Below are positions 4,227-30,953 of a stretch of 46,044 bases of DNA, one piece after another. The notes beneath the pieces were generated by a model that was given only the letters and a program-made list of their open reading frames with translations, did not search any database and had not been told where the DNA came from. The first letter of the stretch is position 1, and each line of letters begins with the position of its first letter. Source of the stretch: Nitrospira bacterium HGW-Nitrospira-1 (GTDB lineage: Bacteria; Nitrospirota; Thermodesulfovibrionia; Thermodesulfovibrionales; UBA6898). The stretch spans positions 2,352-48,395 of the forward strand of contig PGYF01000001.1 in NCBI GenBank assembly GCA_002839535.1. The letters run 5' to 3'. A program made the translations under genes and the position numbers.

Positions 4227-5652
4227 GCCTTACCTTTCCGCTTGCTGTTTTTGGCAATGCATCCACGACCTGAAAATCCTTGGGCACTTTATATTGAGAC
4301 ATCCTCTGATAGCAGAACCTTCGTAAATCACCCAAGTCCAGTTCCCGTGACGGGCTGTTTCTCAAGACAAGCATAGCCGCGGGCAGCTGCCCGTACTGCG
4401 GGTGGGATACGCCGTAAACCATCGACTCTTTCACGAGGGGATATTCGTTCAGCACAGCTTCCACTTCAAAAGGGAAAACCTTCATCCCCACAAAATTGAT
4501 GACATCCTTCTCCCTTCCGACAATAGTCAGATGACCATCATTTTCGAGCCTGCCGAGGTCACCAGTCCTGAACCAGCCGTCCTTCAGCACGCTCTCCTGA
4601 CCCTGCCATGGTGAAAAGTAGGCGTCAAACATGCCCTTCCCCCTGATATAAATCTCCCCGACGCCGTCAGTGTCTTTTGCTGCTATTTCGACCTCATAGT
4701 CCGGAAGGGGCCTGCCAACGCCCTCCCTGCTTTCCCCTCCGGACAACAGATTAATGAACGGCAACCCCACCTCGATAATACCGTAGGCCTCGGCCGGTTC
4801 AAATCCGAACTTCGCGGAAAACTCCTCTGCGATGGCACGGGGAAGCTTCATGGCGGTTGAAATCGCCAGACGTATATTACTGAGAGACCAGGGAGAAAGA
4901 AGGTCTGAACGGACCATTACGTTACAGTGAAAAGGTGAGGCATAAATAAACGTACCTTTATGACGCGTAATCCCCTCTATAAGAGATTCCGGAAAATTAT
5001 GACTGCAAAGTACGATGGTTGCCGCGCGGCGCAGAAAAAGGAGTATGGTCACCACGAAATGGAAACTCATCGAGAGCACCCACAGTACTGTATCTTCCGA
5101 AGTGATCTTCAGGCCTTTGTCTGCCGCGTCCGTCCTTTCAATGATGGCCTCGTGGGACATGACCACCCCCTTGCTTGCGCCGGTAGTGCCGGAGCTGAAA
5201 CGGATGAATGCAGGATTGATCCTGTAATATTCAGCATAGGGCAATGCAGGGACGTTTCTTTTAAGTATCCGCAATTCCTTTTTAAGCAAACCCTCTGATG
5301 GGAGAATTTCGGAGCCTTCTTCCTGATATGTCCCTTTTTCAAATATCAGGTAATCAAGAGATATCCTTTCTATAATTTCTTTTATCTCCTTATCAGCCTG
5401 TTCAGGAGAGACAGGAACGATCACCGCCGAAAGGGACAAGACCGCAAGATTTGTCGTAATGTAGTCAATGGAGTCGCCGCACAAAAGACCCACCCTGTGA
5501 AACCGGCCCACGCCTTTTGCCCTGAGAGAAGACGCAGTCATATCAGCAAAGGAGAGGAGCCTCCCATAGGAAAGCATTGCATCGCCTTCGATGACCGCTG
5601 TTTTCCCGGTAAAGTCCCGTGTCTCTTTTCTGATCGTATCGAATATGTTCAT
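4207..5652 (-). CDS. AMP-dependent synthetase/ligase (acyl- or aryl-adenylating enzyme, ApeH-like position)
   Basis: 481 aa. Motifs FSSGTTGASKGV, GWFRTGDLG and a C-terminal SGKV lysine motif of the ANL superfamily. Confidence 0.85.
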   Translation of the reverse strand: MNIFDTIRKETRDFTGKTAVIEGDAMLSYGRLLSFADMTASSLRAKGVGRFHRVGLLCGDSIDYITTNLAVLSLSAVIVPVSPEQADKEIKEIIERISLDYLIFEKGTYQEEGSEILPSEGLLKKELRILKRNVPALPYAEYYRINPAFIRFSSGTTGASKGVVMSHEAIIERTDAADKGLKITSEDTVLWVLSMSFHFVVTILLFLRRAATIVLCSHNFPESLIEGITRHKGTFIYASPFHCNVMVRSDLLSPWSLSNIRLAISTAMKLPRAIAEEFSAKFGFEPAEAYGIIEVGLPFINLLSGGESREGVGRPLPDYEVEIAAKDTDGVGEIYIRGKGMFDAYFSPWQGQESVLKDGWFRTGDLGRLENDGHLTIVGREKDVINFVGMKVFPFEVEAVLNEYPLVKESMVYGVSHPQYGQLPAAMLVLRNSPSRELDLGDLRRFCYQRMSQYKVPKDFQVVDALPKTASGKVRRENTPH

Positions 5653-5694
5653 ATCACCTTCTTACCGGTTCATGGGTAGTAAGGCCTCCTGTAT

Positions 5695-6906
5695 TTATAT
5701 TTCCTTATGCGATGAAAGGTAAGCTCCATATTTGATCTTGCGGGCTGCTGCCCTTCCTGCCTGCTCTCCCAGGGAGATGCATGTGCCCATCACCCTTGTA
5801 GAGCCGAGCGCCTCGTGAGAAACCGATATACAGCGACCGGCGCATAATAAGTTGTCAAAGCCGTTCACCTTCAAACAGCCGAAAGGTATCTCATAATAAT
5901 CACCCTTTTTCACATACCGGTAAATCGTCCCTTTGTTCCTGTCCCATAGCTCTATGGGCCATGAACTTCTGACAATGCCGTCCGGAAATTTCTTTGCGCT
6001 CAGGACATCTTCTTCCGTAAGCATGTACTCACCCCTGATCCTCCTGCCCTCCCTTTCCAGAACACCTTTGGAAGTTTCCGCGATGCAGGAGTCCCTGAAT
6101 GCATCGAGCCTGTCTGACAAATACTTGTAGGCTGACAGCGCATCCGTTATCGCCCCTTGTCTGCTTTCGATATCGTTCGAAACAGACACACTAACTTTCA
6201 GGTATCCCTCGTCCGGACTGTCACCGGGGACCAGGACTGAAAATCTGAGTTCAGGAGGCAGAATCCTGTTTTTCACAGCCTCGGCCAGGCACCACGGGAC
6301 TTTCAGCCGCAGGCTTTCATCATAATCTTTCAGCCCCCTTATATGCATCACATACGCGGCAAGCTGGAGTTTTTCCTGCGGAGCTGCCTCAAAGTCGGCC
6401 CCTGCCATCGCTGAAACCGCTCCGCTGCCTGAGCAGTCTATCACCATGCCGGGTACTATTTCATAGTCGGCGCCTGCACATGCCACCATTACCCCGTCTA
6501 TTTTTTCTCCACTCTTGCTGACCGATACCACCGTTGTATCCGGACAAACCTCGATATTTGATTCTGCCCGGCAGAAGGAATCAAAAACAGTTCTGAGGTC
6601 TTCCCTGGAATAAGGCAGGACATAGACCCGCCCCATTTTCTGCACTGTCTTATCAGGAGATAATGCATTCAGTAAGGCGACAACCTCCCGGGATAGTCCC
6701 TTGTTGAGAGTTTCTTCGGGCATACTGTCACTATTGAGGTAAAGGCCGCAGATATGCCTGAGCAATCCGGAATAGCCGATACCACCCAGAAAACCTTCTT
6801 TCTCGACAAGACACGTACGCGCTCCCTGCCGCGCAGCTGCCACAGCTGCCGCCACACCGGAAACACCACCGCCTGCAATCAGCACATCGGTCCGAATACT
6901 TTTCAC
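5695..6906 (-). CDS. FAD-dependent oxidoreductase
   Basis: 403 aa. N-terminal dinucleotide fold DVLIAGGGVSGVAAAVAAARQGARTCLVEKEGFLGG. Confidence 0.75.
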   Translation of the reverse strand: MKSIRTDVLIAGGGVSGVAAAVAAARQGARTCLVEKEGFLGGIGYSGLLRHICGLYLNSDSMPEETLNKGLSREVVALLNALSPDKTVQKMGRVYVLPYSREDLRTVFDSFCRAESNIEVCPDTTVVSVSKSGEKIDGVMVACAGADYEIVPGMVIDCSGSGAVSAMAGADFEAAPQEKLQLAAYVMHIRGLKDYDESLRLKVPWCLAEAVKNRILPPELRFSVLVPGDSPDEGYLKVSVSVSNDIESRQGAITDALSAYKYLSDRLDAFRDSCIAETSKGVLEREGRRIRGEYMLTEEDVLSAKKFPDGIVRSSWPIELWDRNKGTIYRYVKKGDYYEIPFGCLKVNGFDNLLCAGRCISVSHEALGSTRVMGTCISLGEQAGRAAARKIKYGAYLSSHKEI

Positions 6907-7091
6907 ACGGAAACCTCCAGTTTCTCCTTTACGCCTTTTGTCAGCATCAGGACTTCCTCATCAGACAACAGTCCGTCGAGATAAGAGATAACAAAATTCA
7001 GCCGTCCGTCAAAAGAATTGAAAAAAACCCCCAGTCCGGGCGGGACCGGGACCCGTGGGGTATGAAAAAGATTTTTTATTTCCGACCCCAT
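6903..7091 (-). CDS. C-terminal fragment of condensation-like acyltransferase (frame-shifted relative to 7076-8185)
   Basis: The 62-aa ORF overlaps the end of the upstream ORF by 16 nt in another frame. GLGVFFNSFDGRLNFVISYLDG resembles the last strands of condensation/WS-DGAT folds. Confidence 0.5.
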   Translation of the reverse strand: MGSEIKNLFHTPRVPVPPGLGVFFNSFDGRLNFVISYLDGLLSDEEVLMLTKGVKEKLEVSV

Positions 7092-8185
7092 GCAACCTTT
7101 CCACCCATTGGCAGGCGAAAAACTTTTTCCAAAAAAGAAAGCGGGGCGATACGCAGCAGTGCGCTCGCAGCGGAAAGGTCTTTCGGCATCCCGGCTTTTA
7201 CCTGCTCATACATCTGGCCCTTCACTGTCTTCATAATCTTCTTCAGGTCGGCAGTCTCCTCTGCCGGGACCTTGAAAAACAGGTAGGAAACGTGGTTCAG
7301 AAATAATTCCTGTGTTATGTCCTCGCTTGTTCTCGAATCAATGGTGACAGGGACCACATAATTATTCGTCTCTATCCCCTTTTCTTTAAAAAGCTGATGG
7401 ACCGCCTGTATGACAACAGAGAGCAGATAGGGCATCTCCATCAAATACCCGGCCTGGCTATACGCGGCCTCGAAAATTCTGGTCGTCTCTTCTTCGTCAA
7501 AAGAAATAAGGCGGAATTTAAAGCCCCTGTCCTTTTCCTGCGGAAGAGGCAGGATTTCAAAGGCTGGTTTTGAAAGGGCGATCATCTTACGGTTAACATT
7601 CCTGCCTGAATAAAATTTCTGCATCCAGTCTGAAAGGTCCGCAGGGGCGGTCAGTTGCAGCCCCTGCAAAATGGCCGCAAGGTCTGCTCCCGAAGAATAT
7701 TGCAGAAACAGCTCGAGAAAGTTTTCAGCCCCACGCGCATCGAACAGGCGATGGTCAAAGGTCATCGCAAAGATACTGTCCTTTTTTCCCCTCTGCATAA
7801 GATGGAACGCAAGATGTTCATTGTCCGGGAAAGGGCTGTTCACGGCCTTTTCAAGTAATAGCAGGGCCTCCTCCAGTGACGGATTTTCTTCTGTTTCATG
7901 GACACTGAGCTTGAAGTCAACGGTCGCCTTTTCAGGTAATCGCCAGTAGGGGGTGAGATTGAAGTCCCGGCACACATTACCCTGAAGCATCGGAAACTCT
8001 TTCAGAAAATCTCCCAGCCGCTGCCTGAGGGGACCTTCGTCAAGCTGCGCATCCATCACAAGAACGATCTGAGACATATTTCCCGCGCAGGTCATGGATT
8101 TCATCGTATGGTCAAGCGTATTGATTACCCAGTCCGTGCCGGACAGATACAATTTGTTTTTGGACGAAGGGATAACAAAGCCCAT
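7076..8185 (-). CDS. Condensation-domain-like (HxxxD) acyltransferase, N-terminal ~85 percent
   Basis: 369 aa with FDHRLFDARG (HxxxD catalytic motif). The size and motif position fit the condensation / PapA5 / WS-DGAT superfamily. It terminates prematurely next to a GGGG run. Confidence 0.6.
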   Translation of the reverse strand: MGFVIPSSKNKLYLSGTDWVINTLDHTMKSMTCAGNMSQIVLVMDAQLDEGPLRQRLGDFLKEFPMLQGNVCRDFNLTPYWRLPEKATVDFKLSVHETEENPSLEEALLLLEKAVNSPFPDNEHLAFHLMQRGKKDSIFAMTFDHRLFDARGAENFLELFLQYSSGADLAAILQGLQLTAPADLSDWMQKFYSGRNVNRKMIALSKPAFEILPLPQEKDRGFKFRLISFDEEETTRIFEAAYSQAGYLMEMPYLLSVVIQAVHQLFKEKGIETNNYVVPVTIDSRTSEDITQELFLNHVSYLFFKVPAEETADLKKIMKTVKGQMYEQVKAGMPKDLSAASALLRIAPLSFLEKVFRLPMGGKVAWGRK

Positions 8186-8187
8186 AA

Positions 8188-8430
8188 TTAGAGCTTTGAG
8201 GTGATAAAGGCCGCCAGAGAATTCAGTGTCTCAAAATCCTTTTTGGTCAAATCAGTTTCGACCATATTGAGATTAAAGGTCTTTTCAATAAATACAAGCA
8301 TCTCGACAAAACCAAGCGAATCGAGTCCCAATTCTTTAAAGGGCATATCAACATCCACTGAATATCTGTCAATAGAGAGTATCTCAGAGACGCCGTCTAT
8401 CAATTTTTCCTCTACTTCCTTTTTTGTCAT
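8188..8430 (-). CDS. Acyl carrier protein (ACP-1)
   Basis: 80 aa, with the LGLDSLGFVEML phosphopantetheine attachment motif (DSL). Confidence 0.85.
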   Translation of the reverse strand: MTKKEVEEKLIDGVSEILSIDRYSVDVDMPFKELGLDSLGFVEMLVFIEKTFNLNMVETDLTKKDFETLNSLAAFITSKL

Positions 8431-8447
8431 TTCCGTCTCAGGTGATA

Positions 8448-9518
8448 TTATAACCGGCTTTTTCTTAAGCAGATAACCGCGCTTTCAGCCGAACAATTAT
8501 ATCCAATAGAACGTATTAAATCAATTCCGGCAGGTCTGCTCACATCGACCAGATTGACGTTGTGCGGGTTCTCAAGTATTGGACCGGCATATTGCATCTG
8601 TTTTTTTATCATCAGGGCTCCTGCCGCGCAATTAAAGGCACTGCCGGTCATGAGGCTTCCAAATAAAGGCGAATAAGCGGCAACAGGGACTGTTGGGGAA
8701 AGCGCTTTAAGATATGCGGTCCCGTCAATGGTACCATCGGAATCAATAAGGTCAATGTCTGACGCTTCATTAGGCCCAAGTCCTTCGTTAAAAGCAATAT
8801 CGTCTATTCTGCAATAGGCCTTTTCCGGCGACTTCCAGGAGACGACAAAGAAGACACTTCCCTCCCCAGGGACCGGAGGTGATGTTGGGGAGAAATGAAA
8901 AGGCCTCACCTTGCCGTCTGTTGCTGTGCCCAGTTTTCCGTCAAAGATATATCTCATGACCTCCCCGCACTCGTCCGCCACACCCACAAGTACAGAGTCA
9001 CAGCGGCCATCAAGGAGCCACACCTGCGCAAGCTGAAGGGCGCTTTGGAAAGGGAAAGAGAACCGCGTAACTGTCAGGGCCGGGCCGGTTATATCCAGTG
9101 CAGAAGTAATATAGGAGACAGCCGCGTTATGCACAGAATTCGAAAATATTGTGGGAGATACCTGGGCTTCACCGTAATCAATAATATTATCAAGAAAATC
9201 GAATGTGGTCTGATGCGCGCCGAAGGCAGTAGATAAAATTATACCGGTCCTGTTTTTGTTAATATCAACTCCGCTATCCTTGATTGCATCAGATGCTGCC
9301 AGGACAGCCATTTTGCTCAGCTTGTCGGCCCTGCGCATTTTTTTCAGCAGGACCTTGTCTGCTATGTCCCCATTGTTCACTGCATAGACAGGCAATCTCT
9401 TTTGTATGCGGGGAATATCATATTCCACCGGCTGCTGCCAACCCTGCTTCAGCGCATCTTCATAACGCCCGATACCTCTGCCGCCGCTGAATATTATCCC
9501 TATGCCGAGCAGATTCAT
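8448..9518 (-). CDS. Chain-length-factor-like ketosynthase homologue (no active-site Cys)
   Basis: 356-aa thiolase-fold-like ORF directly downstream of a KS. STAFGAHQTT sits where a KS has xACSS, so the catalytic Cys is absent. Confidence 0.7.
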   Translation of the reverse strand: MNLLGIGIIFSGGRGIGRYEDALKQGWQQPVEYDIPRIQKRLPVYAVNNGDIADKVLLKKMRRADKLSKMAVLAASDAIKDSGVDINKNRTGIILSTAFGAHQTTFDFLDNIIDYGEAQVSPTIFSNSVHNAAVSYITSALDITGPALTVTRFSFPFQSALQLAQVWLLDGRCDSVLVGVADECGEVMRYIFDGKLGTATDGKVRPFHFSPTSPPVPGEGSVFFVVSWKSPEKAYCRIDDIAFNEGLGPNEASDIDLIDSDGTIDGTAYLKALSPTVPVAAYSPLFGSLMTGSAFNCAAGALMIKKQMQYAGPILENPHNVNLVDVSRPAGIDLIRSIGYNCSAESAVICLRKSRL

Positions 9519-9521
9519 TTT

Positions 9522-10691
9522 CTACCCTCTCCCCAATAAAAGCGCTGCGTTGTTGCCGCCAAAGGCAAGGGATGTTGATACCGCATATCTGCCTTTGATT
9601 CTGGTTTCTTCCTTTACCGGCGTAATGGGGATATCATCATCCTTATTCCTGAACCCTGGGCTGGAAGGTATCCATCCCTCGCTCAGGCCGGCTGCTGTAA
9701 AGGCGGCCTCAAGCCCACCTGCAGCGCCAAGGGTATGCCCTGTAAACCCCTTTGTCGATAACACCTTAAGGTCAGGCCCGAACATTCTTCCCAGCACCTT
9801 GCCCTCAACCAGATCATTATCTGTTGTCCCTGTTCCATGGGCGTTGACAAAACATATTTCACCCGGCCCTATACCTGCCTCTGCTAGGGCTTTATTTATA
9901 GAGGCCTCCAGCCCTGCGCCGTCAGGTCTGGGCGCTGTGAGGTGATAGGCATCAGCTGATGCGCCATAGCCCAAAATACAGAGATCTGAAGACTTGCCCC
10001 TCAGCTTGGCGGAAGCCTCTGTCTCAAGTATCAGGATGCCAGCGCCCTCGCCCAGATTCAGTCCCCTGCGGTCCCGGTCAAAAGGTGAACACAGGGACTG
10101 ATTGACTATACCGAGGGAGCTGAAACCGCAAAGGGGAATGAGGCTCAATTCATCAGCGCCTCCTGCAACCGCAATATCGCAAAGCCCTGTTTTCAGCCAC
10201 GAAAAAGCCATGCCGATCGCATCAGTCCCTGAGGAGCAGGCGTTCACTACAGTCAGGGCAGGGCCTCTGGCGCTGATCTTACGGGCGATGAATTCCGCAA
10301 TGTTCCCCTTGATATATCTGTCCACAACTTCCATGGGGGCGTTGCCGCTTTGCCTGTAGGAGCGGTAAAACTCCAGGTCATTTAGCTGGCTTGCCACTGT
10401 CGTGCCAATGCTTACGCCGACGCGCAGCCCGGTGAGATCGCCAAGCGAGGTGCTGTCCATGGCCTCGTCAAGCGCGCAGAGCGCAAGGCTGAGAGTCCTG
10501 CTTTTCTCCACTATAAAACCGGCGGGTATCTGCCTGACCTCAAAAACCGGACATTCCAAAGAGGTAGTGAAAAGCGAGACAGGCCCAGCGTTTCTATCTA
10601 CTCTTTTGAATGAATCAAGCGTCACGGAAAGACCCCTGCCGGCAGCAGATATCACGCCAAGTCCGGTAATCAGAACCTCAGAATTTTTCAT
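9522..10691 (-). CDS. Beta-ketoacyl-ACP synthase (KS, FabF/FabB-like)
   Basis: 389 aa. The Cys-His-His triad motifs VVNACSSGTDAIG, NAHGTGT and GHTLGAAG are present. Confidence 0.9.
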   Translation of the reverse strand: MKNSEVLITGLGVISAAGRGLSVTLDSFKRVDRNAGPVSLFTTSLECPVFEVRQIPAGFIVEKSRTLSLALCALDEAMDSTSLGDLTGLRVGVSIGTTVASQLNDLEFYRSYRQSGNAPMEVVDRYIKGNIAEFIARKISARGPALTVVNACSSGTDAIGMAFSWLKTGLCDIAVAGGADELSLIPLCGFSSLGIVNQSLCSPFDRDRRGLNLGEGAGILILETEASAKLRGKSSDLCILGYGASADAYHLTAPRPDGAGLEASINKALAEAGIGPGEICFVNAHGTGTTDNDLVEGKVLGRMFGPDLKVLSTKGFTGHTLGAAGGLEAAFTAAGLSEGWIPSSPGFRNKDDDIPITPVKEETRIKGRYAVSTSLAFGGNNAALLLGRG

Positions 10692-10703
10692 ATCAGTTTC
10701 GCC

Positions 10704-11633
10704 TCACTCCTCACTCCTCACTTTATATATATCCAGCCCCTTATCAAGCGTTACAATCCTCATACCAGGATGTCTGGAACGCGCATATTCTATAAGTTCT
10801 GTAAGGGCCTCTTTTTCATTATATAGTATTTCCTCAAGATGACAGGTTGCCTTGCCCGATTGTCCGGTAATTGTATCGCCGGCATGTGGGGGCGCTGACA
10901 AAGGCACGAAATAAAACCAGTCAAAGAGTTTCTTGGTGTATCTTCCCCTTGCGCCGGATGGGCTGAAAAGAAGCGTTTCTCCCTGCTGAAAGACGCCGTC
11001 CCTTTGAGACACTTTTACTTTCACAGCGATATTATGCAGGTAAAGGATCAGCCATTTTCTTTCTGCGCCCGCCCTATCGATAAGCGCCTTCATCTTATCC
11101 ACATTATGGCTGAACGAGTATGATTTCAGTTCGTATCTCTCCGGAACAGCCGGGGTCAGCATGCTTCGGCCTCCCCTTCCGGACCGGTAGTATCTGCCCG
11201 CCAGTCCTCTGACAATGGCGTTGTTTTTATTATACGGGTAGACCAGATTATTTACCCTGAGCCCCCAGCCTTCGAGCGCCGCCTTTGACACAGATAATTC
11301 AGATTCAATCTGATCAGCATTCAAACTATTCAGGTCAGGATGCGACACAGTATGGCTCATTATCTCAAAGCCGTCACGCTGAAGCTCCAGTAGCTGTGAG
11401 ACAGTCAGATAATTTTTTGTATTTATCCAGTCAGTCACAACAGCGAAGCTTGCCGCCACCCCCTGTTTTTTAAACACCTCTCTCGCGACAAGATAGTCCG
11501 TATCGTTTCCATCGTCAAAGACAAAGCTGAGGAGGGGCGCTGGTCCGCTGTCCATGGAAGGACCCTTTCTGACACTGCCGCTGCATGACGATATCAGCAA
11601 AACAGCTATAACAAAGGTTATAAATTTCTTCAT
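10704..11633 (-). CDS. Polysaccharide deacetylase (NodB/CE4) family lipoprotein
   Basis: Lipobox LLISSC at the N-terminus. NodB motifs FVFDDGNDTDY and MSHTVSHP. Confidence 0.8.
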   Translation of the reverse strand: MKKFITFVIAVLLISSCSGSVRKGPSMDSGPAPLLSFVFDDGNDTDYLVAREVFKKQGVAASFAVVTDWINTKNYLTVSQLLELQRDGFEIMSHTVSHPDLNSLNADQIESELSVSKAALEGWGLRVNNLVYPYNKNNAIVRGLAGRYYRSGRGGRSMLTPAVPERYELKSYSFSHNVDKMKALIDRAGAERKWLILYLHNIAVKVKVSQRDGVFQQGETLLFSPSGARGRYTKKLFDWFYFVPLSAPPHAGDTITGQSGKATCHLEEILYNEKEALTELIEYARSRHPGMRIVTLDKGLDIYKVRSEE

Positions 11634-11683
11634 TTTATAATTACTACAACCTGCGGTCTCTGTCGCAGGGGTTCTTTACTAAG

Positions 11684-13054
11684 TCAACATAGCCTTGAAG
11701 ATGTCCCCCCTTCTGAATGAGGAGTTCTTGCCAGGGATTTTGATTCCTCTTTTAATACTGCATCAATAATATAATCACAAACATCCTCAACAAAATAAGC
11801 GCCATATTTCGTCAAGTTTATGGCCCCGCCTTCCTGCTGAAGGCACCCGTAACCGCTGAGCCTTGAAAACAGCGAGGAAAAAACCTCAAGGGGGTCCGCA
11901 GTAAATCTGCTCTGAAACTGCTTTATATCGAGGCCTCTTTTCACTTGGATATTCAGCAGAAGCGACCGGTACATTTGCTCTTTGGGGGTAAGAGAAATAT
12001 ATCTGCCAACAGGCAGCCCCCCTTTTCTGATAATATTTGAATACACAGAAAGCTCTTCATGCTTGTCAAAGCAAATCGTCCTGGTATATGATCGCGCCCT
12101 TGAACCAAATGCTATGATAGGCATTTCCTTTAACCAATAATATCTGTATCCCCACTGCGTATCATCAGTGAATCGTCCATTTTGCTCATATCCATTTGCG
12201 CTCATCCATTCCTGTGTTATACACACCATTTGAAAAAGCGTGTCATTGTCAACAACAAGACCTGGATTGTCCTTATACAGCTTGACAACAAGAGGGTTTA
12301 CTATTTCATGCCTGATATATTCAACTGAATCCGGACGTATCCCTCCCAATATCTCAAGATCTTTTTTTACACCTTCGATAGTCTGACCGGGAAGTCCTGT
12401 CATCATATCAATGTTTATCGACATACCAGTATCCTTAACATCGTTGACAATTCTTGCAATCTGGCCCTCGGTATTTTTCCTGTTACACAGTAGAAGCACT
12501 TTTTGGTCAAAGGTCTGACAACCGAGGCTTAATCTGTTTATGCCGATATCACCTAATTCCCTTATTCTTTGTTTGTCAGACAAAGTAGATGGATGCGCTT
12601 CAGAAGTAACACTACAGTTTTCAGATAAATCAATACATGATGAGATTTTATCCAATATAAGTTTTATGTCGTTGTTGGAGAAGGACGTAGGAGTTCCGCC
12701 GCCAAGATATATGCATTTTGCCTTCCTGCCTTTGAAAACTCCGCGAACTGTTAAAAGTTCAATCTCCTTCAGCAGATTACTTAAATAGTCCTTTTGAGCT
12801 TCCTTATCTGCCTTATGAGGGAAAGAATTACAAAATAAACATTCGGAAAAACAGAAAGGGAGGTGAACATACAACAATATTTCATCTTCTTCGCTCAAAC
12901 TCTCTTTTACTTTTTCAAGAAAGCTGTCTACCTGTGATGGTGCAAGCATTTTAAACCTGTGAGGAATAAACAGGTCCGGCTGGCTCTTTGTGTAATCCGC
13001 AGAACCATAGAAGAGTTCATTTCTTATGACGTTTAGTATTTCATTTTCTTCCAT
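11684..13054 (-). CDS. HemN-like (class C type) radical SAM protein
   Basis: 456 aa. LYVHLPFCFSECLFC (CX3CX2C in the HemN context) and IYLGGGTPT motifs. Confidence 0.8.
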   Translation of the reverse strand: MEENEILNVIRNELFYGSADYTKSQPDLFIPHRFKMLAPSQVDSFLEKVKESLSEEDEILLYVHLPFCFSECLFCNSFPHKADKEAQKDYLSNLLKEIELLTVRGVFKGRKAKCIYLGGGTPTSFSNNDIKLILDKISSCIDLSENCSVTSEAHPSTLSDKQRIRELGDIGINRLSLGCQTFDQKVLLLCNRKNTEGQIARIVNDVKDTGMSINIDMMTGLPGQTIEGVKKDLEILGGIRPDSVEYIRHEIVNPLVVKLYKDNPGLVVDNDTLFQMVCITQEWMSANGYEQNGRFTDDTQWGYRYYWLKEMPIIAFGSRARSYTRTICFDKHEELSVYSNIIRKGGLPVGRYISLTPKEQMYRSLLLNIQVKRGLDIKQFQSRFTADPLEVFSSLFSRLSGYGCLQQEGGAINLTKYGAYFVEDVCDYIIDAVLKEESKSLARTPHSEGGTSSRLC

Positions 13055-13066
13055 ACGGTGGGTGTT

Positions 13067-13360
13067 TTAAATCCGGCCTTTCATATTCTCATAGACATGG
13101 TTTGCGAGCGTATCTATGGAATAAAAAATCTCTTTTCCTTTGTTCATGTCCTTTACTTCGATGCCGAAGTTGCGCTGCAAAAGCACGACTATTTCTACGG
13201 CATCAAGAGAATCGAGGCCAAGACCTTCACCGAATAAAATTTCATCGTCTTTGATGTCTTCAGGATTAATATCTTCGAGTGACAGGTCCCTTACAAGCAT
13301 CTCCTTTAAATCCTTCCTCAAGCGTGCCAATTCTTCCTCTTTGGTTTTTTCCATCATCAC
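13067..13360 (-). CDS. Acyl carrier protein (ACP-2)
   Basis: 97 aa, LGLDSLDAVEIVV motif. Confidence 0.85.
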   Translation of the reverse strand: MMMEKTKEEELARLRKDLKEMLVRDLSLEDINPEDIKDDEILFGEGLGLDSLDAVEIVVLLQRNFGIEVKDMNKGKEIFYSIDTLANHVYENMKGRI

Positions 13361-13388
13361 ACCCCTTGCATTTGATATTTCGATTTAA

Positions 13389-14153
13389 CTAACTCTTCCC
13401 TTCCCACAGATCTCCAAATACAAACCACTGAAACGGATACCGGGCAGCATAGGCAACTACCGGACACTTTGCAGCTGCCGCAATACTGAAGGCCCCGTAG
13501 GGAAGGCCCACCTTGTCACCCATTAAAACTGCATCCATAAAATTCCGGCCATAGCTGCGGTCTCCCATAATGGAGACGATGCAACCCTGGTCTATAGCGT
13601 TCATAATTTCAACAGCGCCTCCAAGGAAACCATCAGAAGAAATAATCCTGATCTTTCCCTTTTCACTATCGATATTGAGGGTCTCCTTCACTGCGGCGTT
13701 ATCTTCTGGCCGCATCACCAGATAAACCGTTCTATCTAATTTTTCAAGCGCTGTCATGGCCATCTGCCAGTTGCCGACATGAGCGGTCAGCAGTATAATA
13801 CCCTTCCGGCTCCCGCTCAAAAGCGCATTAAGTTTATCATATCCGTAAAGTTCGATGTCAAAGCCGCCCAAGCCTGAAATAAGATAGTAACGGTCTATAA
13901 GATTTTTCCCCTGATTAATAAATATCCGGTAGACCCCTGCGAGCCTGCGGATTGCATTGTATCTCCTGAAGCGCCTTTTGATATAGGCCATACTGGAGGC
14001 CACAGCAAGCCGGTCGAAGATCAGGTAATAGAGCCCGACAAAATACAACAGACCATATGCGCCGGAAAGTCCGAAGGTTTTGAGGCTGACTTTAAAGATT
14101 GCCATCCCCAGTCTGTTCCCCCTCTTTTTTATTTTCTCTTCTTTACTCCTCAT
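13389..14153 (-). CDS. LpxL/HtrB-like lysophospholipid / lipid A acyltransferase (ApeD-like)
   Basis: N-terminal TM segment, then LLTAHVGNWQMA (the H-x-GNW-E/Q motif of the lauroyl acyltransferase family). The start is uncertain (ATG 14153 or 14105). Confidence 0.7.
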   Translation of the reverse strand: MRSKEEKIKKRGNRLGMAIFKVSLKTFGLSGAYGLLYFVGLYYLIFDRLAVASSMAYIKRRFRRYNAIRRLAGVYRIFINQGKNLIDRYYLISGLGGFDIELYGYDKLNALLSGSRKGIILLTAHVGNWQMAMTALEKLDRTVYLVMRPEDNAAVKETLNIDSEKGKIRIISSDGFLGGAVEIMNAIDQGCIVSIMGDRSYGRNFMDAVLMGDKVGLPYGAFSIAAAAKCPVVAYAARYPFQWFVFGDLWEGKS

Positions 14154-14170
14154 TCCTCACTCATTACGCA

Positions 14171-15418
14171 TCACGCATTACGCTTTACTGCCGTTGATTT
14201 CCGAAAGACAGAGGCGATAAGATATACAGCTCCACCCACCAAAACAGAGGCTATCGGCGCCACGATCAGGGAGCCCAGAAACCATTCTAAAAGACGGTCG
14301 GAGAACTGTCTGAAGACCGTGGCAAAAGAAATATCTGAGAGCCAATGCCCCCAGCGCAGGAAATAACCGACCTCAATACAGAGGGCAGGGACAAAGGGAG
14401 GCATACAGATATGCTGAGCATTGACCGCGACAACTTTATTCAGCCGCAAACGATTAGACACATACAGGATCACAAGCGTATGGGCAAAAAGCAGAGGCAG
14501 CGCCCCCAAAAAAACCCCCCCGGCAGCGGCAGAGGCGAGTCCACCCGGAGTGACGTTTTCCTTTAATAACATTTTGATGAACTTCCCTGGGTGGCGCAGC
14601 AGGGTCAGTTTATTGTCTTTCCTGACAGAGACAAGCCTTTTGTGGGGGAAAGGCAGGAGCCGTCTTCCCACAAGCATGGCATGTGTATGCGATAAACGCA
14701 GATTATCCAGAAAAGGTCTGAAACTCGACACCCTTTTCTGAGGCGCGGGATAGTAAACACTGATCAGCACTGTTCGCAGGGCAAGACCTGCCCAGGCTGC
14801 CCTGGCCAGCGCCTCTGCCTCAAAATCATAATGCGCGCCCCTGAACTTCATCTGGTTGAGATATTGAAGCGGATAGGCCCGGAACCCGCTCTGACAATCA
14901 TCGACATACATGCCGGTCTCGACCCGGAGCCAGAAATTTGCAAACCGTCTGCCGAACCGGCTTTTTCCAGGCACATTGTCAGTATCAAAATTTCTGCTGC
15001 CAATAATGATGGCAGGGTCTTTGTCAATAAGCAGTGGAAGAAAATTTTTGATGTCCTCAGGCTTGTGCTGCCCGTCACCGTCTATGGTTATCATCCACGT
15101 CCCGCCCCTGGACGTTATATATTCAGCAGCAGTCAGTATCGCGCGTCCCTTTCCCAGGTTCTTATCGTGCCTCAATACAACGACCTTTGCATCAGACAGG
15201 AGCGCCCGGAGGTCAGCATCCGTGCTGCCGTCGTCGACAACCACAACATTCCTCAGGACAGAACAACAGCCTGCAACAACGTCTTTCACAGTGGCCCTGT
15301 TGTTATAGACAGGAACAACGCACCAGATACAGTCTGTTTGGTTATTGCCTTGCAACACGCCGCTCCCTTTTTTTTGCCTTTGCGCCCGGTATAAGCATGT
15401 CCCACAGTGTGCCTGCAT
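14171..15418 (-). CDS. Family 2 glycosyltransferase with C-terminal membrane domain (ApeJ-like)
   Basis: VVPVYNN...VVVDDGSTDA and ITIDGDGQH (DxD) motifs, with hydrophobic C-terminal segments. The true start may be GTG 15358 or TTG 15355, which would reduce the 77-nt overlap with the upstream gene. Confidence 0.8.
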   Translation of the reverse strand: MQAHCGTCLYRAQRQKKGSGVLQGNNQTDCIWCVVPVYNNRATVKDVVAGCCSVLRNVVVVDDGSTDADLRALLSDAKVVVLRHDKNLGKGRAILTAAEYITSRGGTWMITIDGDGQHKPEDIKNFLPLLIDKDPAIIIGSRNFDTDNVPGKSRFGRRFANFWLRVETGMYVDDCQSGFRAYPLQYLNQMKFRGAHYDFEAEALARAAWAGLALRTVLISVYYPAPQKRVSSFRPFLDNLRLSHTHAMLVGRRLLPFPHKRLVSVRKDNKLTLLRHPGKFIKMLLKENVTPGGLASAAAGGVFLGALPLLFAHTLVILYVSNRLRLNKVVAVNAQHICMPPFVPALCIEVGYFLRWGHWLSDISFATVFRQFSDRLLEWFLGSLIVAPIASVLVGGAVYLIASVFRKSTAVKRNA

Positions 15419-16715
15419 AGCCCAGCTTATGGAGCATACGGAGGCTGTTGTCCACCTTGTCCGGAGGGAATATACAGTGCCTGCTATTAGAAAAGGCCTT
15501 GGTCAGGGTCTCTTCGAGCCATTTTCTTTCGACCATCGGCGACAGATAGTAAACCGGCTGCAGCATTCCGTTTTCCGGAGAGAGGACTTTCTCTTTCAGC
15601 GCAATGCGCGCGAGGGTGGTATTGGGAAGGATCCTGATGCCCATAAATATAAAAGAGACACATTTCTTGAGTGCCTTAATATTCTCTATGCCTTCAAGTA
15701 CCGTCTCCTGCGTCTCTCCGGGACCTCCGAACATAAAATAATGTGAGGTCGCAATACCGAAGCTGCTGAAGATGTCGTTACACTCAATCACATTTTTAAA
15801 TGAAAATCTCTTGCCCAGCCCTCTCAGTGTAATGTCACAGGCAGCATCGGAACCTATCTCTACGGCAATGAGGCCGGTCGCTTTCATCAGCCCGACGATT
15901 TCATCATTCAGCCCCTCGGGCTTGAAAAAACCTGTCCACGGGATATTGATGTTTCGCCTCCTCATCTCTTCGAGCACCTCCAGATACGCCCCTTCAGCAT
16001 CGTTGAACACGGAATCAATAAAGAAAATATATTTGGCCTTATATTGGTCGCGCAGGAGTTCAATATCATTGACAACGGCACGGACATCCCTGGTGCGGAT
16101 ACTGGAGCCTTCCAACACAGGGTAGGAACAGTAGACGCATTTTTGCGTGCACCCGCGTTTTGTCTGGATCGAGGCAATATTGCCGCTGTGAAGATAATAC
16201 TCCATCAACTTTTCGTCATATCTGGCAGAGACGATCTCAGTCCCCGAAAGCCCGATCTCAGGCCCAATCAGCCTTTCTTCCGGATAGATTCCCCTGGCGG
16301 CATTCTCCGCAAACCTGACCATCAGCATTTCCCCTTCTCCGACAACGCCGTAGTCAGCGCCGGTCTCAAGCAGAATCAAATCAGGGATGAGCGAAAAGCC
16401 CGCGCCCCCGAGTATGACCTTCGCCTCAGAGACCTCTTTGGCCCTTATCACAATGTCCTTGACGATTCCTATGTAATATTGCTCATTCATGAGATTGACG
16501 TTATCGATATTCCGGACTGAAATGCCGATCAATTGCGGGCCGAAACTCTCAATCTCCTGTGCAAGCGCCTCAAGGGAACTGTTCTGCTCAAGGAAATCAA
16601 ACTGCCGGACCTCATGCCCTGCCCCGGCCAGCGCAGAGGCTATCATGCTGACGCCGAGGGGGTAAACCGGATAGGGGGAAACAGTCACATTTGAGGATAT
16701 CAGGAGTATCTTCAT
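15342..16715 (-). CDS. B12-binding (class B) radical SAM protein
   Basis: 457 aa. N-terminal MKILLISSN...PLGVSMIASAL...LGGAGFS B12-binding-like region, then QTKRGCTQKCVYC. Confidence 0.85.
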   Translation of the reverse strand: MKILLISSNVTVSPYPVYPLGVSMIASALAGAGHEVRQFDFLEQNSSLEALAQEIESFGPQLIGISVRNIDNVNLMNEQYYIGIVKDIVIRAKEVSEAKVILGGAGFSLIPDLILLETGADYGVVGEGEMLMVRFAENAARGIYPEERLIGPEIGLSGTEIVSARYDEKLMEYYLHSGNIASIQTKRGCTQKCVYCSYPVLEGSSIRTRDVRAVVNDIELLRDQYKAKYIFFIDSVFNDAEGAYLEVLEEMRRRNINIPWTGFFKPEGLNDEIVGLMKATGLIAVEIGSDAACDITLRGLGKRFSFKNVIECNDIFSSFGIATSHYFMFGGPGETQETVLEGIENIKALKKCVSFIFMGIRILPNTTLARIALKEKVLSPENGMLQPVYYLSPMVERKWLEETLTKAFSNSRHCIFPPDKVDNSLRMLHKLGYAGTLWDMLIPGAKAKKRERRVARQ

Positions 16716-17983
16716 CTTGTCTGCTCCTTTTTTTTGTCTCCCTTCCAGCTTCTGCCTGCAAGCCGCTGCCGATGATATGTGCCGCTCTCCTTTTCCTTTT
16801 CAAGTACCTTCATGAAGAGCTGGGCCATCTTTATTTCCTGGCTGCAACTGCCGTAAAAAGTGTCCCATGCGTAATAATACATCTCCTGTAATTTTTCAGC
16901 GCTCATCAGCGCGGGCTGAAAGACCACATCGCCGCCGGTATACCTGCGCCAGTCATTATGGAGGATTCTGCCTGCCGCTTCCAGGTCGGCCCTAATGGGA
17001 GTGTGGGGAAATGGGGTCAGTATGGTAAACTCGGCAAGGTCAAGGTTGATTTCAAGGAGAAAATCCACAAGCCGTTTTATATAATCTTCGTCGTGGTCAT
17101 CCATGCCAAGAATAATCGTACCTTCGACGCCTATGCCGCGCTCCTGCAACCGCTTCACCCGTCTTCTTATGTGGTCGGAGGTGTCGAAGATCGCCTGGTA
17201 CACATACCAGCAACCTGCCTCTGCCGCCAGGTCCAGGATCTCGTCATCATCCTTGATAGGATGAGAGATCCACTTTTTCTTAAGAGGTATAAGGGCGCGG
17301 AACAAGGTTTTTTCCCACTCGTCATTCTGGGCCATTGAATTGTCCACAAAGAAAAGACGGTTATTGTCAATACCCTGAAGCTCACTGACGACCGACTCTA
17401 TCTCTCTTGGTCTGAACTGCCGTCCACCCAAAAAAGGCGTACAGCACGGGAAACAATTGAACCTGCACCCCCTGGAGGCATGAATCAGGTCAACCATCTG
17501 CACCCCCCGATAGTTATAAAGATCACGCTTCAGGATGCTCCTTCGGGCAGGCCCTATCAGACGAGTATCTGGGAAATCCAACAGGTAGTTGTAGACCTTC
17601 CTGAGTTTATTGTTCCGCACATCCTCTATCACAGCACCGAACCTGCCCTCTGCTTCACCCAGAAACACGGAATCCGCATGCTCAAGCGTCTCCTCAGAAT
17701 GTAGCATCGTGCCTATTCCCCCAAAGATTACCGGCACACCCAAGCCCCTGTATATATCTGCGATCTCCCAGCCCCTCGGTATCTGGCAGGTGAGCATGGC
17801 TGATATGGCTACCAGGTCAACCTTTTCATCAAAATTCAGCTCCTCCACATTCTCGTCGCAGAAAGAAAGCTCTACGTCTTCCGGCACAGCTGCCGCAAAA
17901 CAGACCGGCCCGTGGGGTGGGAGATGGAACTCTGTCTGTCTGCTTAATTTCGGCCATTTGGGGTAAATAAGTTTAATTTTCAC
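16712..17983 (-). CDS. B12-binding (class B) radical SAM protein
   Basis: 423 aa. N-terminal Rossmann-like region (VDLVAISAM...PVIFGGIG), then HASRGCRFNCFPC (CX3CX2C). Confidence 0.8.
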   Translation of the reverse strand: MKIKLIYPKWPKLSRQTEFHLPPHGPVCFAAAVPEDVELSFCDENVEELNFDEKVDLVAISAMLTCQIPRGWEIADIYRGLGVPVIFGGIGTMLHSEETLEHADSVFLGEAEGRFGAVIEDVRNNKLRKVYNYLLDFPDTRLIGPARRSILKRDLYNYRGVQMVDLIHASRGCRFNCFPCCTPFLGGRQFRPREIESVVSELQGIDNNRLFFVDNSMAQNDEWEKTLFRALIPLKKKWISHPIKDDDEILDLAAEAGCWYVYQAIFDTSDHIRRRVKRLQERGIGVEGTIILGMDDHDEDYIKRLVDFLLEINLDLAEFTILTPFPHTPIRADLEAAGRILHNDWRRYTGGDVVFQPALMSAEKLQEMYYYAWDTFYGSCSQEIKMAQLFMKVLEKEKESGTYHRQRLAGRSWKGDKKKEQTR

Positions 17984-18657
17984 TTTGGATGTTTCCCTTT
18001 CTTTATCAATAAAAATTCTTCTGCCATTTCACGCAGGCTGCCCCCTTTTTCGATTACAGGCAGGGCTTCCGAAACATCGCACAACACCTGCTGCCCCAGC
18101 GCCGGTTCCTTCACTAAAACAATATATGCAGCCTGATCCTCCGTGTTCATCCCGGCCAGTACAGCCTGGGTCTCGCCAAGCATCAGCATTTCAGAGGCGG
18201 CCCTTACGACCGGCAGCAAAGAGGTCTGACCTGAACTCATATAAAATACAGGTCCCTGCAGGCCAAAATGTATCGCGGCCTCGCCAAGCGGGCTTGACGG
18301 AAGGGTATAAAGAAAAAGATTGCCCCGCGACAATTTCCTTCCGCTGTCTATATAGTCACGAAAATAATCAATGTCCGCCTGAAGAGAACCGTCTGCGTTC
18401 GTGCCGATAAGACCCATGTCTTTTTTCCGGTTGCTGTCATAAGCCTCTCCCGCGTCCTTCAGTGCAAGGGCAACAGCGTAACAGACAAGTTTTGAGACCT
18501 CATCAAGCCGTCCGAAATTCTTAAAGGTATAGGAAAATATATCCGTTCGTGAGAGCCCGTCAAAGGAGGTGAAATCCTTATAGCTGACAGGCATATTCTG
18601 CCTGACGCATATATATTCCTCTTTATTTATCCATCCCATGCCTCTAATAGCAATCAT
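17980..18657 (-). CDS. Short KS-N-terminal-like protein (ApeC-type chain length factor)
   Basis: 225 aa, 4-nt overlap with the preceding KS. The thiolase N-terminal-like sequence has no catalytic Cys motif, and the size and position match the ApeC partner of ApeO. Confidence 0.65.
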   Translation of the reverse strand: MIAIRGMGWINKEEYICVRQNMPVSYKDFTSFDGLSRTDIFSYTFKNFGRLDEVSKLVCYAVALALKDAGEAYDSNRKKDMGLIGTNADGSLQADIDYFRDYIDSGRKLSRGNLFLYTLPSSPLGEAAIHFGLQGPVFYMSSGQTSLLPVVRAASEMLMLGETQAVLAGMNTEDQAAYIVLVKEPALGQQVLCDVSEALPVIEKGGSLREMAEEFLLIKKGKHPK

Positions 18658-19772
18658 GCCAGCGCAAGGGCGGAATTGATGCCGCCAAAACCCGCATTAG
18701 TCATCAGCGCCACGGAATTTTTTTGGATGAGACGATACTCAGTAGACACCCATCCTTCTGCCTCAGTATCCGCTTCTTTAAGATTCACAGTTGGAGGAAT
18801 CTTCCCCTCTCTGAGTACCTTTAGCGCGATTATCATCTCGACAAGCCCTGCAGCTCCCATAGTGTGACCTATGCCGCCTTTTATGGAATAGACAGGTATT
18901 TTTTTATCTTTGAATACAGAGTTAAACGCCCTCATTTCCATGGCGTCATTATAGACCGTACCTGTTCCATGGGCCGAAATAAAGCCGACCTCGCTCTCGC
19001 TTGCCCGCGCTGAGGACAATGCCTTTCCTATGGCCATAATCAGCCCTTCACTCTGGCGGGAAGGTCCGGTCATGTGATTGGCGTCATCGCTCAACCCCCA
19101 GCCAAGGACTTCACCGAGGGGCTCCCGCTTCTCTTTCCCTGCCCTCTGTTCACTCATTAGTAACACAAATGCTGCCGCCTCTCCGAGACTCAAGCCGCTT
19201 CTGTTTTTGTCAAAAGGCATGGCAGAAATCTTTTCAAGCGCCATAAGAGAAGAAAATCCTGAATAGACAAACTCCGTCACGCTGTCACAGGCCACGACCA
19301 AAACGCAGTCGCTTCGGCCGCTCCGTATCATCGCAGCAGCCCTCGCTATGCCGACTGCGGATGAGGAGCAGGCGGCCGAGATAAGGGTCCCTTTGGTATT
19401 GACTCCTGCAAGCAGAGCGACCTTTTCAAGAAAGGCTGCCTGGCTGTTTTCGAACATGTGCTTCTGCCCCTGGAGTATCTTCTTCTCAAGAAGGTCTATC
19501 TCCCCTTTTGTCGTGGCGACTATAAGGTCGGCATCAGCAGGTATGGGTGCGGATTTTCCAAATAATGCAGTCAGCATCTGCATGACCAACGAATCTTTTT
19601 GATGATATTTCAGACCCTCTATTGTCGCCGCGTAATTGGACTGAAAGGCGCTCGTGTCAAATCTGTTCAGCTTCGAAATGGCAGTCTGACCGGCAAAGAG
19701 ATTGTCCCGGCAGGCATCAGTGCCCAGTCCGTAGGGCGTAAGCATTTCAGAGGAGACCGCCACGACTCTCAT
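18654..19772 (-). CDS. Beta-ketoacyl-ACP synthase (KS, ApeO-like)
   Basis: Motifs ISAACSSSAVG, SAHGTGT and GHTMGAAG. The start at ATG 19772 forms an ATGA overlap with the thioesterase stop and is preferred over the ORF-track start at 19814. Confidence 0.9.
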   Translation of the reverse strand: MRVVAVSSEMLTPYGLGTDACRDNLFAGQTAISKLNRFDTSAFQSNYAATIEGLKYHQKDSLVMQMLTALFGKSAPIPADADLIVATTKGEIDLLEKKILQGQKHMFENSQAAFLEKVALLAGVNTKGTLISAACSSSAVGIARAAAMIRSGRSDCVLVVACDSVTEFVYSGFSSLMALEKISAMPFDKNRSGLSLGEAAAFVLLMSEQRAGKEKREPLGEVLGWGLSDDANHMTGPSRQSEGLIMAIGKALSSARASESEVGFISAHGTGTVYNDAMEMRAFNSVFKDKKIPVYSIKGGIGHTMGAAGLVEMIIALKVLREGKIPPTVNLKEADTEAEGWVSTEYRLIQKNSVALMTNAGFGGINSALALA

Positions 19773-20254
19773 GCCCTGGGATGAAATTCGCCTGTCTTCC
19801 ATCGTTGCCGGCACCTCTCCAGTAATGCGGGAGAGACTATGCAGACCTCGCCGCTTTCTGCTTCAGTCAATAATTGGACGGTATATCCTGTTGCAGCAAG
19901 CGAACCGTCCTGTTTGTAAAGGCCGAACTCAGTATTGAGGCGGGCGCCCTCATGCCAGATCAGGGAGGCCCTGCTTCTAAACTCCTCGGCAAGACGGAGG
20001 GACTGGTAGTAGTCCACATGAAATTCAACAATCGGCGCCCGCAGGCCTGCCTCATGAAAGTCCTTGTATGAAAGTCCGCATATCCTGCCCAACTCCTCGG
20101 CAGCCTCCTCGAAGTACAGGGAATACCTTCCATGCCAGACAATACCCATGGCGTCAATCTCACTGAAATGCACCCGCCTCCAGACCTCTGCAACAACAGG
20201 CGCAGGCAGATCTTCGCCTCTTTCAAAATAGGTCTTTCTTTTCCTGTTTCTCAT
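19769..20254 (-). CDS. 4HBT/YbgC-type acyl-CoA/ACP thioesterase (ApeK-like)
   Basis: 161 aa. VHFSEIDAMGIVWHGRYSLYFEEA is typical of the hot-dog 4HBT family. Confidence 0.8.
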   Translation of the reverse strand: MRNRKRKTYFERGEDLPAPVVAEVWRRVHFSEIDAMGIVWHGRYSLYFEEAAEELGRICGLSYKDFHEAGLRAPIVEFHVDYYQSLRLAEEFRSRASLIWHEGARLNTEFGLYKQDGSLAATGYTVQLLTEAESGEVCIVSPALLERCRQRWKTGEFHPRA

Positions 20255-27885: not shown

Positions 27886-27888
27886 CCG

Positions 27889-28155: not shown

Positions 28156-28177
28156 TCTTTCACCTCATTGATTAATT

Positions 28178-30897: not shown

Positions 30898-30953
30898 TCC
30901 ACTTAATAACCGGAAGGGGCCGCAGACAATGGACCGGAAAGGTCCAAAACAAC

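Follow-up and report, generated by a model that had tools for sequence, protein, structure and literature searches.

What is a HemN-like radical S-adenosylmethionine (SAM) gene doing inside an operon for the synthesis and export of a lipid? The question is raised by a 46,044-nucleotide stretch of contig PGYF01000001.1 (positions 2,352 to 48,395) from Nitrospira bacterium HGW-Nitrospira-1, the whole of which was analyzed and is called the window here. We find that the HemN-like protein is, as judged from its sequence, no heme enzyme, and that it belongs to a distinct, very conserved and uncharacterized clade. This clade is confined to genomes that have a 'ladderane-like'/aryl-polyene-like lipid operon. 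In the lineage of the window the gene is a clean optional insertion or deletion between the constant acyl carrier protein (ACP2) gene and a deacetylase gene. Taken as a whole, the explanation that we consider on balance probable is a cluster-tied, optional lipid-tailoring enzyme that has the HemN fold and uses one-carbon chemistry. Three features are at the center of the question.

11684..13054, minus strand: HemN-like (class-C-type) radical SAM gene, 456 amino acids (aa), ATG start, from the open reading frame (ORF) call and family matches
13055..13066, minus strand: 12-nt spacer AACACCCACCGT from the TAA stop of ACP2 to the ATG of the HemN-like gene, with no clear Shine-Dalgarno sequence
13067..13360, minus strand: ACP2 gene, 97 aa, TAA stop, DSL serine S51; PP-binding E = 7e-9, NF006617 74.5 bits against a cut-off of 70

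The initial annotation had described a 456-aa ORF of the HemN family with its motifs, an ACP gene 12 nt upstream and a surrounding operon with ketosynthase (KS) and chain length factor (CLF) genes, and all of this is confirmed by the ORF call, Pfam and the spacing. The CxxxCxxC motif is found in LYVHLPFCFSECLFC, with its cysteines at C68, C72 and C75, and IYLGGGTPT forms residues 115-123. Pfam recognizes the domains Radical_SAM (E = 4e-19) and HemN_C (E = 3e-7). The ORF, the ACP and their operon setting are real, far beyond chance. The gene sequence was matched in DNA metagenome runs only.

Could the gene be in the operon by chance and encode an anaerobic coproporphyrinogen dehydrogenase with a housekeeping role, or a ChuW that degrades heme? 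Two observations would fit. The homologues are named 'oxygen-independent coproporphyrinogen III oxidase' in the source database (>100 sequence clusters), and the genome has no other HemN_C protein of HemN length. However, the protein falls below every curated equivalog cut-off of NCBIfam. ChuW/HutW (TIGR04107, cut-off 400 bits) is the best-scoring curated family, and it is matched at 182.6 bits over positions 19-415 of 419. The STM4012 family (cut-off 380) gives 154 bits, HemN/CgdH (TIGR00538, cut-off 324.95) gives 151.4 bits over positions 33-237 of 454, i.e., the N-terminal half only, and HemW (TIGR00539, cut-off 205.4) gives 145.3 bits. The controls all pass, with 808 bits for E. coli HemN, 567 for E. 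coli ChuW and 308.7 for the HemW of the same genome. The HemN-like protein also has a 60-residue N-terminal extension compared with the HemW architecture, where the Cys motif is at the extreme N-terminus. In addition, the PRYTSYPTA motif of HemN is absent, the aligned stretch reading ADYTKSQPDL, and so is the fourth cysteine, since C71 of HemN aligns to S77, next to N76. This motif and this cysteine are reportedly defining features of HemN.

The host genome (1.66 Mb, 99% complete) encodes two HemN_C proteins, the HemN-like protein and a HemW of 374 aa. It also has a candidate heme b synthase, an AhbD-like radical SAM gene that scores 443 bits, slightly below the cut-off of 500. Both genes were located by profile matches.

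G000:C136:4820-5842: AhbD-like radical SAM gene
G000:C156 (L001 1456-2580): HemW gene

The AhbD-like gene suggests that heme is made via the siroheme-dependent route, which needs no HemN. There are no heme-uptake (chu/hut) genes in the window.

The family itself is compact. A scan of 1.8 billion representative proteins gave scores of 776, 554, 393, 363, 349, 341, 252 and 223 bits, below which they drop to 180 or less, the level of generic HemN-like proteins. In a maximum-likelihood tree of 141 sequences, built without full-length Jaw5, C10P, NosN and TbtI, the family forms its own clade with a Shimodaira-Hasegawa-like approximate likelihood ratio test (SH-aLRT) value of 99. This clade is in a half of the tree (99) that does not contain E. 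coli HemN, ChuW and HemW or the HemW of the same genome. Ten representatives from this half, including the nearest outgroups, have generic names, and none clearly reaches an equivalog cut-off, though three are marginal for HemW. More distant members of the clade, with 35-44% identity, lie in unrelated contexts (glycosyltransferases, PMT_2 genes and one archaeal-looking locus), which gave no functional clue. One of them, P0124 (752 aa, from a metagenome, 44% identity), has a family 2 glycosyltransferase domain fused at its C-terminus.

Is the protein a working enzyme? The AlphaFold2 model, calculated from a 30-sequence alignment, has a predicted local distance difference test score (pLDDT) of 89.8 and a predicted template modeling score (pTM) of 0.90, with disorder confined to the last 11 residues. 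In Foldseek, E. coli HemN (1OLT) is the sole full-length match, with template modeling (TM) scores of 0.75/0.79 over 449 columns; the next match has a TM score of 0.37. Residues conserved with E. coli HemN include Y62, H64, C68/C72/C75, GGGT118-121 (in the GGGTPT motif, G118-T123), E152, Q180, R192 and D216. Since the cluster ligands and first-SAM residues are conserved, the enzyme looks catalytically intact. Many basic residues (R304, R319, R321, R351, R363 and R443) are invariant in the family. Four cysteines outside CxxxCxxC (C179, C190, C404 and C426) are likewise invariant in 30 family members. The C-terminal tail, R-x-P-H-S-E-G-G-T-S-S-R-L (residues 443-456, window about 11687-11728), is strongly conserved but disordered in the AlphaFold model (pLDDT < 50), and it may serve to dock a partner protein.

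What kind of operon surrounds the gene? Its extent and the members that matter below are as follows.

about 2814..31688, minus strand: 28-gene lipid operon in full, running from FabG to a B12 radical SAM gene at its end; co-directional and gene-for-gene syntenic across Nitrospirota
29401-30897, minus strand: phytoene-desaturase-like flavoenzyme gene, part of the module 27136..30897
28178-29404, minus strand: KS_c gene, part of the same module
27889-28155, minus strand: ACP1 gene, part of the same module
27136-27885, minus strand: PlsC-like acyltransferase gene, part of the same module
15342..16715, minus strand: B12-binding radical SAM gene, TIGR04072 (rSAM_ladder_B12), 623.6 bits against a cut-off of 360; marks the 'ladderane-like' type
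2814-4226, minus strand: B12 radical SAM gene, last gene of the operon

For synthesis, the operon has two KS/CLF pairs, a third KS, three ACPs, FabG, a thioesterase and an ApeI-like dehydratase, and for export it has LolA, MMPL and DUF3261. It further encodes GT2-DUF2062, an LpxL-like acyltransferase, a NodB-type deacetylase and two adenylating enzymes. Its redox and radical enzymes are the phytoene-desaturase-like flavoenzyme, one radical SAM/SPASM protein and three B12-binding radical SAM proteins. The GT2-DUF2062 ORF (14171-15418) and the TIGR04072 ORF share 77 nt (15342-15418). Translation of GT2 probably starts downstream of its first in-frame start codon. KS, ketoreductase (KR) and dehydratase (DH) functions are present together with the desaturase-like flavoenzyme, and the cluster has no recognizable enoyl reductase. 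Unsaturated chains are therefore expected.

The operon is an aryl-polyene-type assembly and export set joined to a 'ladderane-like' gene set, a type of cluster that is already catalogued. The 'ladderane-like' set was flagged in 2009 as FabF homologues, an ACP, a phytoene-desaturase-like enzyme and B12 radical SAM enzymes (PMC2649909). It was described in Kuenenia and is syntenic in Desulfotalea and Geobacter (PMC2649909; PMC10139942; 2026 preprint). No HemN-like component is mentioned in these three sources or in a report on similar clusters in other phyla (PMC9902471), and a full-text literature search for HemN with aryl polyene and radical SAM gave no match.

Where is the HemN-like family found? 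Homologues with 49-93% identity occur in Nitrospirota, Geobacterales, Desulfobacterales, Desulfobulbaceae, Aminicenantes and others, all uncultured. In an even sample of 301 genomes from the phylum of the window, the family is present in 10 (3%) and the orthologue of the desaturase-like gene in 31. All ten genomes with the family have this orthologue, and the family is present in 0 of the 270 without it (Fisher one-sided p = 3e-11). Across several phyla, cluster genes are found within 10 kb at 29 of 46 HemN-like loci. For want of a desaturase-like gene in the 10 kb next to their HemN-like locus, 18 genomes were searched genome-wide, and 12 have the orthologue elsewhere (51-64% identity), two of them ~37 kb off on the same contig. 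So patchy a distribution, bound to the cluster, is unlike that of a housekeeping gene. A heme enzyme would hardly be present in so small a fraction of the phylum and always together with a lipid cluster, so we regard the idea of a heme enzyme placed here by chance as scarcely credible, and the coproporphyrinogen oxidase label on the >100 clusters is almost certainly wrong. It is highly probable that the protein is an accessory lipid-tailoring enzyme instead. The initial annotation, too, had argued against a housekeeping coproporphyrinogen dehydrogenase, and this has held up on both points that could have refuted it: the clade is separate from HemN, HemW and ChuW, and the genome has a HemW of its own (309 bits against 205).

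Does the gene belong to the operon in the way that its neighbors do? The flanking features are:

10704..11633, minus strand: NodB-type polysaccharide deacetylase gene, directly 3' of ACP2 where the operon lacks the HemN-like gene
11634..11683, minus strand: 50-nt spacer 3' of the HemN-like gene, the 3' edge of the indel, containing an 8-bp hairpin
13389..14153, minus strand: LpxL-like acyltransferase gene, upstream of ACP2

All 28 window proteins were mapped in 11 genomes with the cluster alone and in 7 with both the cluster and the HemN-like gene. The gene order is identical, gene for gene, with and without the HemN-like gene. In each of the nine negative genomes whose contigs reach the junction, ACP2 is followed directly by the deacetylase. 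Two genomes of one genus, G161 (without) and G173 (with), differ by a ~1.6-kb indel that holds only the HemN-like gene, with 142 bp in the former and 1762 bp in the latter between the flanking matches. The hairpin in the 3' spacer, CCTGCGACAGAGACCGCAGG on the coding strand (window 11650-11669), is GC-rich and lies past the stop codon of the HemN-like gene and before the start codon of the deacetylase gene. As it has no clear T-run, it is probably no terminator. The operon of G165 (L112/L113) lacks the deacetylase gene and has ~3 kb of unrelated DNA between the HemN-like gene and KS_a. The ACP2 junction seems to be a rearrangement hot spot.

These comparisons bear on the suggestion that the enzyme and ACP2 are a dedicated pair, in which an enoyl chain is cyclopropanated or methylated specifically on ACP2. 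The two genes share a strand and are separated by 12 nt, the order ACP2 then HemN-like gene recurs in several Nitrospirota genomes (L005, L006, L009, G172, G165 and G173), and there is a precedent in Jaw5, for which an ACP-bound alpha,beta-unsaturated (enoyl) thioester is the proposed substrate (PMC10114718; PMC13459092). However, ACP2 is in the same position in the nine operons without the HemN-like gene, where it has 72-84% identity to that of the window, as against 72-90% in the positive genomes. In G068 and G087, which belong to one genus, ACP2 is unmoved and precedes the deacetylase, and the HemN-like gene is 11-12 kb past the end of the operon. In Desulfobacterales and Desulfobulbaceae the gene adjoins the desaturase-KS_c-ACP1-PlsC module, which is the commonest gene set beside the family in other phyla. 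In Geobacterales its neighbors are a PagL-type lipid A 3-O-deacylase gene and a PAP2 phosphatase gene or, in an alternative setting, PagL together with a B12 radical SAM gene and an amine-oxidase-like gene (L028 8719-9986; L021 1956-5842), with ACP2 not nearby. Among the loci compared, no ACP2 orthologue is next to the HemN-like gene in most other lineages. Since ACP2 is kept in the negative operons and the HemN-like gene is elsewhere in other lineages, their adjacency is a lineage-specific placement. ACP2 is a fixed member of the operon and no private carrier. Thus, the claim that the gene comes with its own ACP did not survive the comparison, and we consider the dedicated pair quite improbable.

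Some of these settings have features of their own. The PagL and PAP2 neighbors hint that the pathway touches outer-membrane (lipid A-like) lipids. In a Desulfobacula locus (L042 12859-16128), the HemN-like gene stands between a desaturase-KS-ACP1-PlsC-LolA-MMPL module and a large KS-AT multidomain synthase similar to PfaA or a type I polyketide synthase (PKS). At six loci, the HemN-like gene adjoins a B12 radical SAM gene with 44-46% identity to the one at 2814-4226 in the window.

Though optional, the gene is highly conserved. Of 27-28 operon proteins, the HemN-like one ranks first or among the top six for conservation in each of the seven related genomes compared; in one example its identity is 92% against an operon median of 75%. 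This suggests that it is under strong constraint where it is present. The GC content at third codon positions (GC3) of the gene is the lowest in the window operon, 0.39 against a median of 0.56, and it is lowest or second-lowest in all six genomes with the gene at the ACP2 junction (window, G172, G238, G165, G173 and G191; L108-L117). Foreign origin and gene-specific codon bias are both possible.

New here are a distinct and conserved clade of HemN-like proteins with ties to an orphan lipid cluster widespread among anaerobes, the optional, indel-type distribution of this clade, and the finding that the neighboring ACP is not its partner. Presence and absence between otherwise identical operons amount to a natural on/off experiment for an orphan lipid pathway. 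A comparison of the lipids would reveal the reaction directly.

Which reaction could this be? HemN-like enzymes share a mechanism with a SAM-methylene radical, which adds to an sp2 carbon in methylases and cyclopropanases or abstracts hydrogen in HemN (PMC10114718). HemN-like tailoring enzymes in polyketide clusters are already known, namely Jaw5, C10P and the coelulatin methylase, the last being a C-methylase in a type II PKS pathway (PMC9714029). By analogy, the initial proposal of cyclopropanation or methylation of an enoyl chain is a reasonable guess. In its general form, the addition of one carbon to an sp2 carbon of a lipid intermediate, we would give it a little less than an even chance, with methylation more likely than cyclopropanation. 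In such a reaction, [4Fe-4S]-bound SAM, probably plus a second SAM, would be held as in other HemN-like (class C) enzymes. A SAM-derived methylene radical would form, and the one-carbon unit would be added to the sp2 carbon. The KS/KR/DH machinery or the phytoene-desaturase-like enzyme could supply a C=C bond as the target; alternatively, an aryl head group could be attacked at a ring carbon. The product, with a C-methyl branch or a cyclopropane, would be a strain-variable decoration of the exported lipid.

Several points weigh against one-carbon addition. The first is the distance from characterized enzymes. Jaw5, Pfl2 and Log2 were compared over their N-terminal 133 residues only (the first 400 nt of the genes, translated), and over this part they score 26-30 bits against the HemN-like protein and rank 127-142 of 153 HemN-like sequences. 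Their motif in this part is C-x7-C-x2-C, as opposed to the canonical CxxxCxxC of the HemN-like protein. When the radical SAM core of the thiopeptide methylase NocN is compared, the identity is 33% over 188 residues and the HemN-like protein ranks only 45th, which is average. As judged by these comparisons, the clade is no close relative of the characterized methylases and cyclopropanases, those of the Jaw5 type being covered by the N-terminus only. The protein stands apart from HemN, HemW and ChuW in the tree and shows no affinity to the Jaw5 type over the 133 residues.

The second point is the active site. The second-SAM site of HemN is formed by Y56, E145, F310, Q311 and I329. The first three correspond to Y62, E152 and Y303, so three of the five positions are kept or conservatively replaced. 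However, Q311 is replaced by R304 and I329 by R321, each an invariant arginine in the family. Since two of the five positions differ, two-SAM chemistry is not assured. The third point is the context. No operon gene co-varies with the HemN-like gene among the 28 proteins mapped, so its surroundings do not reveal its partner or its substrate. The clade has no member characterized by experiment, and similar clusters reported in many non-anammox phyla have unknown products (PMC9902471). Finally, the curated families nearest to the protein, ChuW, HemN and HemW, all handle tetrapyrroles.

A lipid-tailoring enzyme could also work without one-carbon transfer. In this case it would use hydrogen abstraction of the HemN type, leading, for example, to oxidative decarboxylation of a carboxylate to a vinyl group or terminal alkene, to desaturation, or to C-C cross-linking or cyclization of the chain. 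The full HemN fold, including the N-terminal and HemN_C domains, is consistent with this, and HemN itself uses the SAM-methylene radical solely for hydrogen abstraction (PMC10114718). The invariant basic residues would suit an anionic substrate (carboxylate, phosphate or phosphopantetheine), and the three B12 radical SAM enzymes of the cluster could already carry out methylation. On the other hand, one-carbon transfer is the reaction of most characterized non-heme HemN-like enzymes in clusters (PMC10114718). The best NCBIfam match, ChuW, is a methyltransferase as well. We know of no sequence feature that separates one-carbon transfer from hydrogen abstraction in HemN-like enzymes. We consider hydrogen abstraction rather unlikely, though it deserves to be kept in view.

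The link of the nearest curated families to tetrapyrroles, which ChuW, HemN and HemW all bind, leads to another explanation. The protein could resemble HemW and act as a chaperone or modifier, providing or conditioning cobalamin, a corrin, for the neighboring B12 radical SAM enzymes. The operon has three such genes, the HemN-like gene is directly beside one at the six loci mentioned above, and its presence/absence pattern would fit an optional helper. However, in the Desulfobacterales (L036-L043) there is no B12 radical SAM gene within 10 kb, and the HemN-like gene is beside desaturase-KS-ACP1-PlsC. About 30 genomes have a TIGR04072 match >600 bits, and the HemN-like gene is present in only 9 of those. 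No cobalamin-related gene co-varies with it. A role as a tetrapyrrole helper is thus very improbable.

One-carbon addition to a lipid intermediate could be extended further. The clade may be an independently evolved, oxygen-free cyclopropanase or olefin C-methylase that acts on type II carrier-bound unsaturated acyl or polyene chains in Gram-negative anaerobes (Nitrospirota, Geobacterales and Desulfobacterales), which we regard as unlikely but attractive. If true, the outer-membrane lipids exported by strains that have the gene would be cyclopropanated or methyl-branched, and those of strains lacking it would be plain. It would be the first case of a HemN-like enzyme that takes a bacterial membrane lipid as its substrate. 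It would also provide a natural on/off system for the old proposal of cyclopropyl intermediates in ladderane-type chemistry (PMC10139942).

How does the system compare with known ones? E. coli HemN/CgdH (1OLT), the oxygen-independent coproporphyrinogen III dehydrogenase, has the same three-part fold and nearly the same length (457 aa against 456), at an identity of 21%. Common to both are CxxxCxxC, GGGTPT and, in the HemN-like numbering, E152, Q180, R192, D216, Y62 and H64, as well as an aromatic residue at F310 of HemN. E. coli HemN differs in having PRYTSYPTA, C71, Q311 and I329, the last two being arginine in the HemN-like protein. HemN serves heme synthesis, whereas the distribution of the HemN-like family tracks a lipid cluster. 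ChuW/HutW, a class C radical SAM methyltransferase that takes part in heme breakdown without oxygen, is matched over its full length and shares the tyrosine at the F310 position. However, the score is 183 bits against 400, E. coli ChuW is in the other half of the tree, and a heme-uptake context is missing at the window.

NocN/NosN (9P2U), a class C methylase of thiopeptides, is the PDB sequence that matches the radical SAM core best (94.5 bits over residues 51-233). The match is limited to this core, NocN is closer to HemW-like representatives, and its substrate is an indolyl thioester in a pathway for a peptide that is made on the ribosome and then modified (RiPP). Jaw5 (jawsamycin), the polycyclopropane synthases Pfl2 and Log2, and C10P/YtkT are likewise HemN-like radical SAM proteins in clusters of the polyketide or fatty-acid type. 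Jaw5-type proteins differ from the HemN-like protein in having the N-terminal motif GFPSPRYW along with their own cysteine spacing. Moreover, Jaw5 works with an iterative type I PKS in Streptomyces, whereas the window has discrete type II KS, CLF and ACP proteins and belongs to anaerobic Gram-negative bacteria.

At the level of the cluster, anammox Cluster I (KustE3603-3608) and the Desulfotalea psychrophila loci resemble the window operon in the phytoene-desaturase-like gene, the FabF-like KS genes with a KS/CLF-like pair among them, a dedicated ACP and the TIGR04072 B12 radical SAM gene. The hydrocarbons of Desulfotalea are explained by Ole/Pfa genes and were set aside as a clue to the product. 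Published descriptions of the anammox cluster give no HemN-like gene, whereas the window operon has one, and no anammox genus appears in the titles of 63 species-representative HemN-like loci. With aryl-polyene (APE) clusters, the window operon shares LolA/MMPL/DUF3261, the thioesterase, GT2-DUF2062 and the LpxL-like acyltransferase. The HemN-like gene is an optional extra of non-anammox anaerobes.

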